NCBI GenBank assembly: GCA_040754455.1
Contig: JBFMCP010000001.1
Span: 1 to 64,000 of the forward strand
DNA length: 64,000 bases
Source of the DNA: Nitrospirota bacterium
GTDB lineage: Bacteria; Nitrospirota; Thermodesulfovibrionia; Thermodesulfovibrionales; Dissulfurispiraceae
Direction: 5' to 3'
Position numbers: made by a program. Of this stretch, positions 32,401 through 38,400 are shown piece after piece. How positions within the stretch are numbered: the first letter of the stretch is position 1; each line of letters begins with the position of its first letter.

Positions 32401-35400
32401 CGGCCCTTCATAGGCTGGGCAAACACCAGGGGAGCAAACAAAACCATTGAGACAGCAATGATAAGTCCTCCTACCCTTCTTCCCATTGCAATACCTCCTT
32501 ACTTTTAGTGTTTATCTTCTTCCTCTGCTGCCTTCGCCACGCCTTTCTCTCTCAGGACCGGCCGACTTTCCTCGGTGCTCTCTGATGGACTCCCTTTCCC
32601 GGATGCTCTCCCGCTCTCTTAATCTTTCCCGGTCATCGGTACGCCCGCCGTCTCCCCGGTACATCGGACCGAGATATTTTTCTTTCTCCTCAGGCGTCAT
32701 ATCGTACATCCTCCTCTGCCACTCCCGTTCGTATGCCCTCTGCTCGTCGAAAGGAGCGTCTTTCATGCCCTCCCTCATTTTCGCGAGCTCATCCGTGGGG
32801 ATAAGACTGTAGTCGGCGCCGGATGCCGAAGAGAGCGCCACCACCGTACCTGCGAGTATGATTGCGACGACCACTTTGATCATCATCGTTTTATCCCTCC
32901 TTGACTCTCGATTATGAACAGACCATAGCGACAGGTCTCTATTTAAATTCTCTCACAAAAGGGCCCTTTTGTGAACCAGCTGCAGCCTTCCTGCCGGAGT
33001 TCGCTCTGTTTGAGGGGCGTGTATGCTAAAATATTGTTTAGCATACAATAGATTAGAGGTGAATTTTAATGAATATACGTTTGACATCGGACGAGACGGT
33101 TCCCGTTCAGGAAGGCGAGGATATTTATACTGCCCTGAAAAAGGCGGGCATTTATCTTGTCGCTTCCTGCGGGGGGAAGGGCACCTGCGGCAAGTGCAGG
33201 GTCAGGATTATAGAGGGAGACCATGAGGTCGCCTCCTATGGGAAGCTTACCTCCCAGGAAAAGGAATCACGCCTCGTCCTCGCCTGCCAGACCGTTCCGA
33301 AAGGAGACATCCTTGCAGAGATACCGAAGGAGTCGCGTCTGGTCGTCGGCGACAAGATCGCCATTGCAAAGACCAAGAACCTCGTCGATTATCTGAAATC
33401 CTACGGTGTCGCCATAAATCCGCCGATCAAGAGAATCTCCCTCGAGCTGCCGCCGCCGACGATCAGCGATAATATCAGCGACCTCGAACGGCTGAAGCGG
33501 GCGCTCGCTGAAAAGGGGCTCGACAACCTCCGTTTCTCCCACCTCTTCGTCTCGACGATGGGGAAGATATTGAGAGAGGCGAACTGGAAGGTATCGCTTA
33601 CGTACGTGCCGATGAACGGAACAGGCGGCGAAGCAATCTTCATCACCGCCCCGGAACACTGCTCGCGACGGTTCGGCATTGCCGTTGATATCGGCACCAC
33701 GACCGTCGTGGTTTACCTCGTGAACCTCTCGACCGGAGAGATCGTCGATGTCGGTTCGACCTACAACTCCCAGATGCGCTATGGCGATGACGTCATTACG
33801 CGCATCGTCCATGCTACCGAAGGCAAAGGCCTGCATGAGCTGAGGGATGCGGTCGTAACTGACATCAACACGATTGTAACATCGCTGCTCGACCGCCACA
33901 GCATTCACGCCTGCGAGATCGATTCCGCAACCATCGCCGGCAACACCACCATGTCGCACATCTTCTGGGATATGGACCCGGGATCGATCAGGGAGGAACC
34001 CTACATCCCGGCGCTCAACCATTTCCCCCTCTGGAAGGCGGGCACGGCAAAGCTCTCGATCAATCCGCAGGCGCCGGTATATACCGTTCCCTGCGTCGCA
34101 AGTTATGTCGGCGGCGATATCGTTGCAGGGGTGCTCGCGTCGAAGATGCACCGCAGTCCCGAGATCGCCCTCTTCATGGATATCGGGACCAACGGCGAGA
34201 TCGCCCTCGGCAGCAACGAGTGGCTTATGACTGCCGCCTGTTCAGCCGGCCCCTGTTTCGAAGGGAGCGGCATACGGTGCGGCATGCGCGCGACGCCAGG
34301 TGCCATCGAGGCAGTGAAGATCGATAAAGAGACCTTCGAGCCGGAAATAAAGGTCATCGGCGGCGGTGTTCCCCTGGGCATCTGCGGCTCGGGGATGATC
34401 GATGCCGTATCCGAGATGTTCCTCACAGGTGTTATCGATCTGAAAGGGAAATTCATCAGCAGCACCACCGAAAGGATCCGCGACGGTGAGGAGGGTCCTG
34501 AATTCGTCTTCTACAAAGGCGACGGGCACCATAAAGACATCGTCCTCACCGAAGTCGATATCGAGAACCTGCTCAGGGCAAAGGCCGCCATTTACGCCGG
34601 CGTCACCACCCTGCTCGGAGAGGGCGGCTTTACCCTCGATATGATCGAAAAAGTGTACATCGCCGGCGGCTTCGGCAACTATATTAATGTAGAGAGGGCG
34701 ATCACCCTCGGCATGCTCCCCGATCTGCCGAAAGAGCGCTTCGTCTTTATGGGCAACACCTCCATCACCGGCGCCTATCTCTGCCTGCTCTCCGAAGAAT
34801 TGAGAAAAGAGGCTGAAGAGATCGCTGCAAAGATGACGTACATAGAATTGTCCGTATCGCGGAACTTCATGGATGAGTACATGTCCGCCCTCTTCCTTCC
34901 CCATACGGATATCACGCAGTTCCCGACCGTGGCGGAGCTGATGCAGAAATAGCGTGTACAATTAATACGGCATGGGCTTTTTTCTTGACATAAAGAGGGA
35001 CTTCAGGGCGGTCTTCGAGCGCGACCCAGCGGCGCGGAATATCGTCGAGGTGCTCATCACCTATCCCGGCCTCCACGCCATTATCATACATCGCTTCAGC
35101 CATGCGCTCTGGAAATTGAAGATTCCGGTGATCCCGCGTCTGCTGTCGCATATCGGACGCTTTCTGACCGGTATCGAAATACATCCCGCAGCACGGATAG
35201 GACCGGGCTTCTTTATCGACCATGGGATGGGCGTGGTGATCGGCGAGACGACGGAGGTAGGCGAGGATTGTCTTCTCTATCAGGGCGTGACCCTCGGCGG
35301 TACGGGGAAAGAAAAAGGGAAGAGGCACCCTACCCTTGCGGACAACGTGGTCGTCGGCGCCGGTGCAAAGATTCTGGGGCCCATACGGATCGGCAGTCGC

Positions 35401-38400
35401 GTGAAGATCGGCGCCAATTCCGTCGTGTTGAAGCCTGTTCCCGATGATGCCATTGTCGTCGGCGTGCCGGGCAGGATCATAAAGAAAAAGATATATAGAA
35501 TAGAAGAGCGGGGCCCTGTCGAAGCGCTCGACCATGTACGGCTCCCCGATCCTATGGATGAGAAGTTCCAGGAACTGATGGACCACATCGAACGGCTCGA
35601 AACAAGGCTGGAAAAGATAGAGGGTAAAGGAGGAAGGATGAAGATCTACAACACCATGACGGGCAGGAAAGAGGACTTCATGCCGCTCTCGGACAAAAGG
35701 GTCGGGATCTATGCCTGCGGCGTCACGGTCTACGATTACTGTCATATCGGCCATGCACGGAGCGTTATCGTCTTCGATGTCATAAAGCGGTATCTCGCCT
35801 ACAAGGGGTTCGATGTGAAGTACGTGAGAAACTTCACCGACATCGACGACAAGATCATCAAGAGGTCCCATGAAGAATGCCTCACCTGGGACGAGGTGGC
35901 AAGAAAATATATCAGGGAATACTACGTCGATATGGACCGGCTCGGCGTTGCACGGGCGGATGTGGAGCCGAAGGCGACCGAGCATATCAGTGAGATGATC
36001 GATGTCATCAAGGCCCTTATCGAAAAAGGCCATGCGTATGAATCCGAGGGGAGCGTCTACTTCTCGGTCGATTCGTTTCCCGAGTATGGAAAACTTTCCA
36101 AGAAAGAGCAAAAGGACCTCCTCGCCGGAGCCCGCGTCGATGTTGAGGAAAAGAAAAAGAACCCTTCCGACTTCGCGCTCTGGAAGGCATCGAAACCGGG
36201 AGAGCCCTGGTGGGAGAGCCCCTGGGGCAAAGGCAGGCCCGGCTGGCATATCGAATGCACGGCGATGGCGATCAAGCACCTGGGTGAATCCATCGATATC
36301 CATGGCGGCGGCGCAGACCTCATCTTTCCCCATCACGAAAACGAGATCGCACAGTCCGAGGCCTACACCGGCAGACCGTTTGCCAAATACTGGGTACATA
36401 ACGGCTTCATCACCATCGACAAGGAAAAGATGTCGAAATCGCTCGGCAATTTCTTTACCATCCGCGAGATCCTCGACAAGTTCGACCCCGAGGTAGTCAG
36501 ACTCTTCATCCTCTCGAGCCACTACCGCAGCCCTATAGAATTCTCGAACGAACAGCTCAGGGATACCGAATCCTCGCTCGATAGATGCTATACCACTATT
36601 GCGAGGATCAACGATTTCCTCGCAGGTGTTCCGGCATCCTCTTCGAAAGCACAGAAGAGCAGCGAAACACACACGGAACTTGAGTCTGCGCTCAACGCCT
36701 TCAAAGACCGCTTTGAAGAAGCAATGGACGATGACTTCAATACCGCTCTTGCCATCGGCCATGTGTTCGAACTGATACGAATCATCAATAAATTCCTCGA
36801 TGCAAAGCCCTCGCGAGAGGAAGACCAGAAACTAATACTACGGGCCAAGGACACCCTGCGCACTGCCGGCGATGTCCTTAATCTCTTCCACAGGACACCG
36901 GCCCAATGGAATATCGATCTCCTGGCGATCAAACGGATTCCCCTCACACACGCCGAGATCGAACGGAAGATCAGCGACCGACGGATCGCCCGACAGAACA
37001 AGGATTGGACGCTTGCCGATGCAATCAGGAAAGAGCTTGAGGAGAAGGGAATACTTCTCGAAGATAAAAAGAGCGGGACGGACTGGAAGGTAAAAATCGT
37101 CTAACTACCGTTTCAGGTTTCAAGGTGAGAGTTTCAAGTTAAAGAAGAATAAGAGGTTCATCTTCTTTTCGCCGCAATGGTACACTTTAAACTCAAAAAA
37201 TATTCTTTATGCTTTTGACTACAAACCTGAAACCCGAAACCTGAAACTATTATATGAGAGACCGAGAAGAAAAAGGAGCATGGATCTATGGCATCAATCC
37301 CGTCGCTGAAGCCGTCAAATCAGGGCGGATGATCACCGCCCTTTATGTCCACGAGCAAAGCCGCGGGCACAAACCTGTGCGCAAGATTCTCGATGCGGCA
37401 AAAGCAGCGGGCGTCCCGATAAAATTTGAGAAGAAAGAATTCTTCGAATCCCGCTTTCAAAAGGGGCATCAAGGCGTTGCAGCACTGACAGGGAAGAAAA
37501 AGACAATAAGCATAGAAGAATTACTCGAAATTCCTGCATCAAGAAACGAACCCCCTTTCTTTATCATCCTCGATGGCATCGAGGACCCGAGAAACTTCGG
37601 CGCAATCCTGCGTGTCGCCGATGCGTCCGGGGCGCACGGCGTCGTATTCCAGAGCCGCCGGTCGGCAGGCATTACGCCTGTCGTTGCCAAAGCATCGGCC
37701 GGGGCGCTGGAACACGTCAATCTTGCCGAGGCCGTCAACATCAAGCACGCCATGGAGAAGATGAAAAAGGCGGACATCACCATCATCGGTGCAGAGGCTG
37801 ATACGGAGCTGACGGTCTGGGATGTTGATCTGAGGGCACCTCTTGCCCTCGTCGTCGGCTCTGAAGGCGAAGGATTGCGGCGCACCGTACGGGAGATGTG
37901 CGATCACATAGTGCGGCTGCCCATGAAAGGGACCGTCAACTCGCTCAATGTGTCGGTTGCAACCGGAATCCTCTCTTATGAAATAATGCGGCAACGAAAT
38001 AAGCGCAGTTGATATAAGAGCGGTCAAACACCATGAAATACAGAATCGATCTACATGTCCATTCAAAATACAGCGGCGACAATGATGCCGAGCCCGAGGA
38101 ATTGATCGACCAGGCCATCAGGCTGAACCTGTACGGGATCGCCTTCACCGAGCACTATTCCTATGAGGCATCGGCGTTCGTCGAGCTCCTCCGGGAAAAA
38201 TACGGTGATAGGATCAGACTATTAAGGGGCGTCGAGCTTTCGGTAATCGAGGGACATTGCCTCGTCTTCGGCATCGACACCGACCGCCTCTCGTTGAAAG
38301 ATGCATCCATCACCGAAGTGGTGAAAGCGGTCAACCGCAGCGGAGGCGTGGTCATCCCTTCACACCCCTACCGAAAAGGAAACAGCCTGGGTGATATAGT

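Follow-up and report, generated by a model that had tools for sequence, protein, structure and literature searches.

The window analysed here, a 64,000-nucleotide stretch of a Nitrospirota genome, carries at 34972..37104 on the forward strand an ATG-started frame of 710 codons plus stop, with zero stops inside on translation of the window, which profile and solved-structure matches assign as a cysE–cysS fusion gene. Judged from its sequence, the gene product opens with a complete serine O-acetyltransferase of the short type (SAT, CysE; residues 1-222, including a helical tail) and continues as a complete cysteinyl-tRNA synthetase (CysRS, CysS; residues 223-710), and the claim of the genome-wide survey's note that one frame holds two complete enzymes is borne out by the 710-aa translation, Pfam and the NCBIfam cut-offs. 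The upstream neighbour (33069..34952, +) is a RACo-like corrinoid-protein activase with Fer2, RACo linker, middle and C-terminal domains, whose reading frame closes 19 nt ahead of the fusion gene in an arrangement kept in relatives, unfused ones too; the downstream neighbour (37254..38012, +), a SpoU/TrmH-type RNA 2′-O-methyltransferase, follows cysS across the class. In the short upstream gap sits a −10-like hexamer, TACAAT (34957..34962, +), 4 nt after the upstream gene's stop and 9 nt before the first ATG, and in relatives, too, the first ATG is often just downstream of a −10-like box. No Shine–Dalgarno site was found before the first ATG, and a stricter two-hexamer promoter scan found no promoter at the start of the gene. 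Scanned for Rfam families, the whole window gave only a tRNA at 5346-5418, with neither a T-box nor any other family close to the fusion gene. An antisense frame at 34912..36762 (−; 616 aa) was rejected as a shadow frame, being long in this genus only and 95-385 aa in 26 of 28 relatives.

Overall, the gene is very probably a genuine and ancient fusion of cysE with cysS. The CysRS domain is also present in all 120 of the matches listed among database proteins that match the SAT part (390-1243 aa), and an open frame runs unbroken across the junction in 99 of 401 genomes of the phylum, some of them single-contig, which argues that the fusion is not an artefact.

The two catalytic halves

The short-type, N-terminally truncated SAT core (residues 1-173; 34972..35490, +) comprises a helical cap and a left-handed beta-helix. 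It is recognized over the full length of the NCBIfam cysE model TIGR01172 (residues 7-168, model 1-162 of 162; 247.8 bits against a cut-off of 210.65) and by the SAT structure 1ssq at residues 10-172 (E 8.7e-42); the Pfam SATase_N match at residues 7-37 falls slightly below its cut-off (19.8 versus 21 bits). A left-handed beta-helix with hexapeptide repeats is indicated jointly by Pfam Hexapep at residues 120-153 and by the short repeated strands of the AF2 model at residues 81-135 (pLDDT mostly 82-92). Residue equivalences were taken from an alignment with H. influenzae SAT for this half and with E. coli CysRS for the other. D18, E69, H84, R118 and H119 align with D88, D139, H154, R188 and H189 of H. 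influenzae SAT chain 1sst, the acidic partner E69 being Glu where that enzyme has Asp. Across 70 fused proteins D83, H84, R118 and H119 never vary, and conservation of D18 and E69 is at least 90%. Some of the catalytic and serine-site roles that go with these aligned positions are those that we take them to have; others are described in the available part of a study of truncated CysE proteins (PMC13040420).

A six-frame search of the genome with TIGR01172 gave eight matches at E ≤ 0.001, of which the sole one over the cut-off is the fusion gene (251.9 bits; runner-up 52.4 bits), and three cysK/M genes pass their cut-off, all on contigs other than that of the fusion gene. The SAT half scores above the cut-off of the EpsC model NF041874 as well (239.8 bits against 150), so by score alone it could have a role outside cysteine synthesis, as another hexapeptide acyltransferase, EpsC-like or similar, that would tie CysRS to some activity other than making cysteine. 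We regard this as very improbable: the higher cut-off of the cysE equivalog is cleared with the whole model covered, alignment puts the residues of the serine site and of catalysis in register with those of solved SATs, no other SAT candidate exists in this genome although it has three cysK/M genes, and its nearest free relatives carry the source name serine O-acetyltransferase.

The C-terminal half is a complete class I CysRS (residues 223-710; 35638..37101, +), with HIGH at 258-261 and KMSKS at 486-490. It matches NCBIfam TIGR00435 (cysS) at 584.1 bits against a cut-off of 340 (residues 223-707, model 1-465 of 466) and Pfam tRNA-synt_1e at residues 236-532 (461 bits), and its anticodon-binding part is present as DALR_2 (580-639) and CysS_C (661-705), both over the Pfam cut-off. 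CysRS structure 8qhp matches residues 218-707 (E 5e-148), and E. coli 1li5 matches at E 6e-138. C249, C429, H454 and E458, presumably the zinc ligands, match the corresponding E. coli residues exactly and, together with H258, G260, H261 and K486-S490, invariant in the 70 fused proteins. Searched with PF01406, the genome holds besides the fusion gene a 413-aa paralogue on contig C14 that has no anticodon-binding domain, and three further weak matches in other long frames. The survey's description of the gene as the genome's only CysE and only CysRS with an anticodon-binding domain thus holds, on the sole TIGR01172 match over cut-off and the lack of that domain in the C14 paralogue. ARAGORN places tRNA-Cys(GCA) on contigs C29 (75 nt) and C21 (95 nt). 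Every checked catalytic residue is kept in both halves; therefore both enzymes should be active, the one predicted to convert serine to O-acetylserine and the other to charge tRNA-Cys.

The joint and the predicted trimer

What looks like a linker, residues 174-222 (35491..35637, +), carries a conserved LDH..PDP motif, a helix at 194-217 and a GKGG hinge. That it was an added piece we rejected: the free-standing 221-aa CysE of genus g11 stops precisely where CysRS begins, and free short CysE proteins at 58-65% identity cover 94-99% of residues 1-222, so the segment is the native helical tail of a short-type CysE. The joint would consist of this tail unchanged, a Gly-rich hinge and the former first Met of CysRS. 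In the monomer model (pLDDT 85.2) the helix spans 194-217 and the hinge 218-220, with the LDH..PDP motif in a low-confidence stretch ahead of the helix, and confidence in the coiled-coil of the tail is moderate (pLDDT 52-67).

Modelling predicts that three chains associate through the SAT beta-helix and the tail helices, the latter making up a three-helix coil. The trimer model scored 0.93 against 0.01 for the best control, a value that may reflect the model's memory of SAT trimers, which are among the solved structures; partner pLDDT was at least 78, at least 70% of contacts agreed among three runs, and contacts at residues 195-217 were heptad-spaced. In calibration, the mark used was reached by 20 of 30 proteins solved as pairs and by 1 of 23 solved as single chains. 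Bacterial CysRS is a monomer. The synthetase half resembles E. coli CysRS (1li5/1u0b; 8qhp) in its full-length match, identical HIGH- and KMSKS-surrounding motifs, zinc/cysteine site and anticodon-binding part; unlike the canonical enzyme it bears a 222-residue enzyme on its N-terminus and, if the model is right, would be held in a trimer, the full-length product carrying three CysRS units on flexible hinges. Direct substrate channelling between the two activities seems unlikely because the intermediate step, O-acetylserine sulfhydrylase (OASS), is encoded elsewhere, and the likeliest gain would be that the enzymes of cysteine supply and use are always expressed together and in a fixed stoichiometry.

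A close structural parallel is the truncated CysE of Gram-positive bacteria and mycobacteria: according to the available part of a recent report, SaCysE and MtbCysE are without the first ~75 residues of long SATs and combine a beta-helix active site with an elongated C-terminal helix, in a predicted trimer with a coil of tail helices (Proteins 2025, PMC13040420). The fusion protein likewise begins at residue ~73-80 of solved long SATs and yields the same trimer and coil in its model, but its tail runs into a whole CysRS and so leaves no free C-terminus; the words "fusion", "fused" and "CysS" do not occur in that part of the article. SaCysE and MtbCysE carry a C-terminal Ile, and in the non-covalent cysteine synthase complex (CysE–CysK) the free C-terminal Ile of SAT sits in the CysK active site (PMC13040420, same part). 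Such a free Ile-ending tail, a feature of the complex and not of SAT catalysis, is absent from the fusion, which resembles the complex in linking SAT physically to another cysteine-handling enzyme and differs in that the partner is covalent and acts two steps downstream. Among close free relatives of the SAT half, 5 of 73 end in Ile, and the free g11 CysE does not.

Distribution and origin of the fusion

The survey had placed the fusion in most of the order, and a larger sample reproduces this, with the fusion in 111 of 151 genomes; it was also found in all 17 genomes from the other orders of the class, so that it extends, on these gene sequences, past the order to the whole class, whereas none of 114 CysE genes in a sister class is fused. 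Among 1.84 billion representatives it forms a single 50%-identity cluster, only one of the best 150 matches is full-length, and ten other long matches have no Hexapep domain.

The unfused relatives look secondary. In the CysRS tree, a quick search with SH-aLRT support only, rooted at the midpoint and with three outgroup rows wandering into the ingroup, unfused CysRS falls at four places or more among fused sequences, and on the labels as scored the starred branches force at least five changes. In the unfused family f10, all four loci have RACo as the immediate upstream neighbour of cysS and a GGAGG 5 nt ahead of the ATG, and no SAT was found at E ≤ 1e-25 in any of its 14 genomes. In genus g11, which is nested among fused genera of family f4, cysE and cysS are two separate genes whose stop and start overlap as ATGA. 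Unfused cysS genes start at the position equivalent to Met223. We infer that an ancestor of the class Thermodesulfovibrionia had a short-type cysE immediately before cysS, the stop of one and the start of the other probably overlapping as they do in g11, the only genus still keeping them apart, and that loss of the stop would have merged them into one frame. Could the fusion instead have arisen repeatedly and independently, the unfused state being ancestral in the order? Four families do hold unfused genes, the g11 overlap resembles a pre-fusion state and the tree root is insecure, but with an identical joint in all fusions, which fall in that one cluster, with the other orders fused throughout, with unfused CysRS (g11 included) nested in fused clades at a cost of five changes or more, and with f10 retaining the RACo–cysS synteny of its fused relatives, repeated origin is improbable.

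An internal start signal and what it may mean

At the joint lies an internal Shine–Dalgarno-like sequence, AAAGGAGG (35626..35633, +), whose GGAGG core (35629-35633) ends 4 nt before an in-frame ATG (35638..35640, +), the codon of Met223, which opened the ancestral cysS and is a candidate for starting translation internally. Of 89 fused genes, 75 have a start codon at the joint; 50 of these 75 carry GGAGG or GAGGTG at −16..−3, against 1 of the 14 that lack the start codon. Within Gly-Gly-X-start the first Gly codon is GGA in 45 of 53 genes and GGC, the commonest Gly codon of the fused genes, once, compared with GGA in 76 of 352 cases at four invariant Gly columns and in 35 of 116 at other Gly-Gly pairs, all of these being counts that treat related genomes as independent. 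In the genome itself GGAGG peaks 4-9 nt before gene starts, and of 29793 internal ATG/GTG codons just 309 have it at a distance of 3-10 nt upstream. Across most of the order, and in this gene as well, the site at which ribosomes once bound for cysS evidently persists in frame together with its start codon.

Given a conserved internal GGAGG and a first ATG with no Shine–Dalgarno site, two products are possible, and DNA conservation lends a real, if somewhat less than even, chance to a free CysRS made from Met223. The site could also be a silent relic of the cysS ribosome-binding site, or reflect a constraint on a Gly-Gly hinge, with a single 710-aa product, and we give this close to an even chance. 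Gly-Gly is a plausible hinge at the protein level; the second Gly, whose codon has its last base outside the GGAGG core, is also mostly GGA (35 of 53), and GGA encodes G109, which opens a different Gly-Gly pair, in 15 of 30 cases. Moreover, the internal start is lost in 14 of 89 fused genes, mostly in other orders, whose genomes have a single CysRS match, so the fusion works without it. RNA structure at the joint is similarly weak with and without the signals (mean z +1.16 versus +1.31), as a relic or hinge would have it; being alike either way, the test does not discriminate. Against a relic or hinge, GGA is kept in those 45 of 53 genes although the proteins are just 59-84% identical, so that silent sites should be scrambled; in families f2 and f11 the residues before Gly-Gly are wholly different, yet GGA GGN and ATG are retained; loss of the start codon accompanies loss of GGAGG; and the same site is a working ribosome-binding site in unfused f10. 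A translational pause that lets SAT fold and trimerise before CysRS emerges would fit a site exactly between two folding units and conserved at the nucleotide level, but a pause needs neither the co-variation with a start codon 4 nt downstream nor a spacing equal to that of true starts in this genome, and we consider it unlikely.

The physical coupling of cysteine synthesis and tRNA-Cys charging proposed by the survey stands for the one polypeptide that the sequence specifies. If free CysRS is made too, as the conserved internal ribosome-binding site and Met223 start may allow, this coupling would cover perhaps only part of the organism's CysRS pool. A more speculative step, about which we are doubtful, is a dual-output cistron, in which a start codon lacking a Shine–Dalgarno site and lying immediately downstream of a −10 box, on a leaderless or near-leaderless message, would give the SAT–CysRS trimer, while initiation at the conserved inner GGAGG and ATG would yield CysRS alone. 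How much synthetase is tethered and how much is free could then be governed by mode of initiation, and the tethered CysRS could report the state of tRNA-Cys or cysteine to the supply-controlling SAT, as a protein-level counterpart of Firmicutes T-box control.

Two in-frame proteins are made through internal starts from infB (the IF2 forms), cheA (long and short) and clpB. The fusion gene is like these in being a single frame with a candidate ribosome-binding site and start inside it, from which the shorter product would correspond to the C-terminal part; it is unlike them in that its second product is a putative one, proposed from DNA conservation, and its long form would start without a Shine–Dalgarno site, possibly on a leaderless transcript. 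Other housekeeping synthetases also share a chain with an extra enzyme or domain, as in the IleRS with a GNAT domain of NCBIfam NF040702 and, from the available parts of the sources, the LysRS–MprF fusion LysX (PMC9437257) and Mycoplasma penetrans MetRS with its N-terminal ancillary domains (PMC13215547), but in none of these three is the synthetase linked to the committed enzyme for synthesis of the amino acid it charges. What is new here, as read from the DNA, is that the "linker" is CysE's own tail and that a conserved GGAGG precedes an in-frame CysRS ATG. In Bacillus subtilis, a short CysE and CysRS are co-transcribed in the T-box-controlled gltX-cysE-cysS operon. The two genes there have the same order, with the same co-expression logic of cysteine supply and use, but as two proteins under an RNA leader, whereas the fusion is one frame with no T-box nearby; further downstream, that operon also has a SpoU-type methylase.

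The fusion gene and its genomic complement

Serine O-acetyltransferase (SAT, CysE) and cysteinyl-tRNA synthetase (CysRS) are both textbook enzymes, and adjacency of their genes, cysE and cysS, is known from Firmicutes. The genome-wide survey's note had placed both enzymes in one reading frame, and this is borne out by the gene at 34972-37104 (+), a single open frame that runs uninterrupted from an ATG through 710 codons and matches the full equivalog models (NCBIfam) of both: residues 7-168 cover the whole cysE model at 247.8 bits (cut-off 210.65) and residues 223-707 the whole cysS model at 584.1 bits (cut-off 340). 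Pfam places a near-threshold piece of SATase_N at residues 7-37, Hexapep at 120-153, the CysRS catalytic domain at 236-532, DALR_2 at 580-639 and CysS_C at 661-705. Solved SAT chains align to residues 10-172 (E about 1e-41), and CysRS chains to residues 218 or 223 through 707 (8qhp, E 5e-148; 1li5, E 6e-138). Since the SAT part begins at what is about residue 73-80 of long SATs, it is an N-terminally truncated short isoform, of a kind already described, together with its tail helix, in PMC13040420.

Across an alignment of 70 fusions, which share 59-84% identity with the window protein, the SAT residues without variation include D83, H84, R118 and H119, and those of the CysRS part include C249, H258, G260, H261, C429, H454, E458 and K486-S490. 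In a gapless alignment with an offset of 70, H84, E69, D18, R118 and H119 correspond to H154, D139, D88, R188 and H189 of the Haemophilus influenzae SAT, and the Escherichia coli CysRS is identical letter for letter around HIGH, around KMSKS and at the site for cysteine and zinc. Some of the roles ascribed to such residues are taken from PMC13040420, and others are standard for the two enzymes. As judged from such residues, the comparison shows a single chain with two intact active sites, conserved class-wide, and this conservation across relatives rules out an artefact or frameshift as the source of the fusion. An antisense frame of 616 aa (34912-36762 (-)) overlaps the gene and is long in the window's genus only (GC 54-62%); it is interrupted in 26 of 28 relatives, leaving 95-385 aa, and is therefore a shadow frame, dropped as a real gene for want of conservation.

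The genome that holds the window (3.27 Mb in 92 contigs, completeness 100) gives eight matches to the cysE model at E<=0.001; the fusion gene alone exceeds the cut-off, the runner-up reaching 52.4 bits. The CysRS catalytic domain occurs in the fusion gene and in one 413-aa paralogue (contig C14, 2782-4023 (-); 1234..2475 (-) of locus L010), which scores 328.7 bits against the cysS cut-off of 340 and ends before the anticodon-binding part. The survey's claims that this is the genome's sole CysE and its sole CysRS with an anticodon-binding domain both hold, the former as the sole CysE over the cut-off. The paralogue carries HIGN instead of the expected HIGH, deviates where it aligns with the cysteine-site Cys, His and Glu, and is reminiscent of the CysRS* of Mukai et al. 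(PMC5389517). Contig C21 encodes a 95-nt tRNA-Cys(GCA) (54195-54289, complement) whose acceptor stem has 8 bp and whose variable arm is long. It resembles the selC*-type tRNA-Cys reported from Thermodesulfovibrio and other anaerobes (PMC5389517); its gene is not adjacent to the paralogue, and the genome also has an ordinary 75-nt tRNA-Cys (C29) and, on C31, a tRNA-Sec. Three cysK/M genes exceed their cut-off, all on contigs other than that of the fusion gene, so that the reaction lying between the fused activities is encoded elsewhere.

Distribution and direction of evolution

That most of the order Thermodesulfovibrionales shares the fusion, as had been proposed, is confirmed in a sample of 151 genomes, 111 of which carry it: 110 clearly (107 with SAT in frames of at least 673 aa, three ending at contig ends), and G094, where the gene, though truncated at a contig end, runs in frame into linker-like sequence. 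In G092 the gene is in two pieces, with a TAG. An unfused CysRS alone is present in 36 genomes, G089 has a partial match, and two have none. The unfused state is found in 14/14 genomes of the family coded f10, 13/14 of f12, the genera g11 and g36 of f4 (four genomes each) and one genome of f11. When 170 residues across the joint between the two parts were searched against 401 genomes of the phylum, counting end-to-end matches in one frame, 99 genomes matched, 82 of 118 in the order and all 17 that represent the other orders of its class; for the 266 genomes of other classes, no end-to-end match was among those listed. The sister class has CysE over the cut-off in 114 of 121 genomes, in frames of 211-386 aa, and in none of the 114 is it fused. 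A phmmer search of 1.84 billion representatives (50% identity) returned, among its best 150, one full-length match (P0028, 1287.5 bits), the remaining 149 scoring at most 570 bits; similar fusions elsewhere were sought among ten long CysRS matches from the global search, and none carries a Hexapep or SAT domain. From these searches, the fusion is a single family, seen so far in no class but Thermodesulfovibrionia.

For the CysRS part, a quick IQ-TREE (64 rows, SH-aLRT support, midpoint root) scatters the unfused proteins at separate places within fused clades: f10 lies beside the fused members of f1, the window's own family, two unfused f1 genomes lie within f1, g11 and g36 group with fused f4, and f12 groups with its single fused member. 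The starred branches force at least five changes with labels as scored, two rows (L052 and L040) being mislabelled and in fact fused. The gene for a RACo-like corrinoid-protein activase stands directly 5′ of cysS in f10, as it does 5′ of the fusion in the window's genus. No SAT is found at E<=1e-25 in any of the 14 f10 genomes (loci L035, L037, L038 and L039; three single-contig), and one cysK/M is kept in all three checked. Two f1 genomes, G390 and G427 (loci L061 and L062), carry cysS unfused, its frames being 533 and 506 aa long, and lack any SAT within 2.5 kb; the G390 frame extends upstream by about 43 open codons, in sequence unlike SAT. Within 2 kb of 20 unfused-looking loci, one of them that of G094, later found fused, cysE occurs twice, both times in g11. 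We read this pattern, drawn from sequence, as a single ancient fusion, after which the SAT half was deleted several times and, in g11, the two genes were probably split again. Stops seemingly read through in the order-wide search were considered as split genes and rejected as alignment run-on.

What might replace the lost half? A distinct SAT-like gene of 314-356 aa, scoring 158-170 bits with the cysE model and thus under the cut-off, occurs in nine of the 13 unfused f12 genomes and also in G011 (f11) and G096 (f1), the latter having the fusion too; locus L046 (G037:C1:144235-144726) is an example. This gene may stand in for the SAT half. Of the other four unfused f12 genomes, one has a 110-bit match only and three have no match at E<=1e-25. 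In G058 a fused gene is accompanied by an additional, unfused cysS (C14:20242-22362 and C19:1728-3182). This unfused copy clusters with f12 and shows ATA at the usual start position; it could reflect transfer, a decaying copy or bin contamination.

The joint and possible signals for expression

Residues 174-222 are CysE's own tail, not an invented linker. The free CysE of g11 (221 aa) shares with the fused tail an LDH..PDP motif and an amphipathic helix, and it ends at the exact point where the CysRS part begins in fused proteins; its stop overlaps the cysS start as ATGA, and the fused and split states are one frame change apart. Identity is 58-65% to free short CysE proteins from Dictyoglomus, Nitrospirota, Desulforudis and other sources, which cover 94-99% of residues 1-222. 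Only five of 73 such relatives that appear complete end in Ile; a CysK-anchoring Ile of the classical type thus does not characterize the subfamily, and giving up the free SAT C-terminus probably cost little. The idea that the fusion was paid for with a lost cysteine synthase complex is weakened by the same rarity.

The joint may also have kept the old cysS start in use. In the window, AAAGGAGG (35626-35633 (+)) lies 4 nt 5′ of the in-frame ATG of Met223 (35638), where cysS formerly began. In 90 fused genes (30 full-length loci and 60 pieces of 0.5 kb; 89 parsed), a start codon stands at the joint in 75 of 89 (ATG 66, GTG 7, TTG 2), and GGAGG or GAGGTG lies at -16 to -3 in 50 of these 75 versus one of the 14 others (nominal Fisher p 3.7e-5, for genomes that are not independent). 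The first glycine codon of Gly-Gly-X-start (53 genes) is GGA in 45, GGG in 4, GGT in 3 and GGC in 1; in the same fragments four invariant glycine columns have GGA in 76 of 352 codons, and as a further control it is the first codon in 35 of 116 other Gly-Gly pairs (15 of 30 at G109). GGA GGN with the ATG is retained in families whose linker residues are otherwise unrelated. Within the window's genome, GGAGG before the first start of frames of at least 200 aa peaks at a spacing of 4-9 nt, and it stands 3-10 nt before 309 of 29793 internal in-frame ATG or GTG codons; in unfused f10 cysS, it lies 5 nt 5′ of the same ATG in all four loci. Against an internal start, both signals are mostly gone from the lineages outside the order, which yet show a single CysRS match, so that the fusion alone suffices, and the RNA at the joint, less structured than the gene average, is equally so with and without the signals. 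That the internal site also yields free CysRS, in this genome as in most of the order, is a tentative proposal, to which we give somewhat less than an even chance.

The first start is differently equipped. Neither GGAGG nor GAGGTG precedes it in any of 30 fused genes (one with masked bases there), and a TATAAT-like hexamer (at most one mismatch) ends 4-12 nt before it, mostly at 6-9 nt, in 17 of 29, compared with 208 of 2984 ORF starts in the window's genome. Here it is TACAAT (34957-34962 (+)), 9 nt before the ATG at 34972 and 4 nt past the stop of the RACo-like gene (33069-34952 (+)). We hypothesize that the long form may be leaderless or near-leaderless; the −10-like box is the sole basis of this idea, a stricter sigma-70 two-hexamer scan of 34500-37400 having found no promoter before the fusion gene. 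Co-transcription with the upstream gene is possible. Control by a T-box or other riboswitch was discarded, as a window-wide Rfam scan at the gathering threshold matched a single tRNA gene (5346-5418 (-)).

Predicted architecture and significance

An AF2 monomer model built from the 70-sequence alignment (mean pLDDT 85.2, pTM 0.69) is confident for both enzymes; in the tail, residues 165-194 score low, 194-217 form one helix (pLDDT about 52-67), and 218-220 make a low-confidence hinge. Three copies of residues 1-235 are predicted as a trimer with a score of 0.93 against 0.01 for the best control, contact agreement of at least 70% over three runs and partner pLDDT of at least 78. In calibration, on two copies and on other alignments than used here, the mark was given to 20 of 30 proteins solved as pairs and to one of 23 solved as single chains. 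The predicted contacts run through the beta-helix and, with heptad-like spacing, residues 195-217. Because SAT trimers have already been solved, the score may reflect memory of them; the tail coil, the new part of the model, agrees with a low-confidence coil reported for Staphylococcus aureus CysE in PMC13040420. We infer that the SAT helix and tail coil would build a trimer bearing three CysRS units, and that the gain would be cysteine supply and cysteine use locked into co-expression, not channelling, because the sulfhydrylase step is encoded elsewhere.

Members of Thermodesulfovibrionia are sulfate and sulfur respirers of sulfide-rich habitats, where cysteine synthesis should be limited by the supply of O-acetylserine and not by sulfide. 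As a class-wide trait, the fusion provides a natural experiment on the benefit of coupling the supply of an amino acid to tRNA charging, with natural controls in lineages that have split genes, that have deleted the SAT half and have no SAT, or that have lost the internal start. The cultured Dissulfurispira thermophila has a 75%-identical fused copy, and these questions are therefore open to bench testing. Full-text literature search, supplements apart, found no SAT-CysRS fusion, nor is a synthetase fused to the committed enzyme making its own amino acid among the described fusions found; the available parts of PMC13040420, PMC9437257 and PMC5389517 do not mention it. Databases name the fused proteins "cysteine--tRNA ligase" or "hypothetical protein", and fragments "serine O-acetyltransferase"; where the fusion is named only as CysRS, genomes of the class can be scored as lacking cysE.

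Elsewhere in the window, two small PHP + PHP_C proteins (Pfam) of 204 aa (38033-38647 (+)) and 214 aa (40590-41234 (-)) are encoded on opposite strands with 2 kb between them, near frames at 38865-39476 and 41488-43224 that have no Pfam match.
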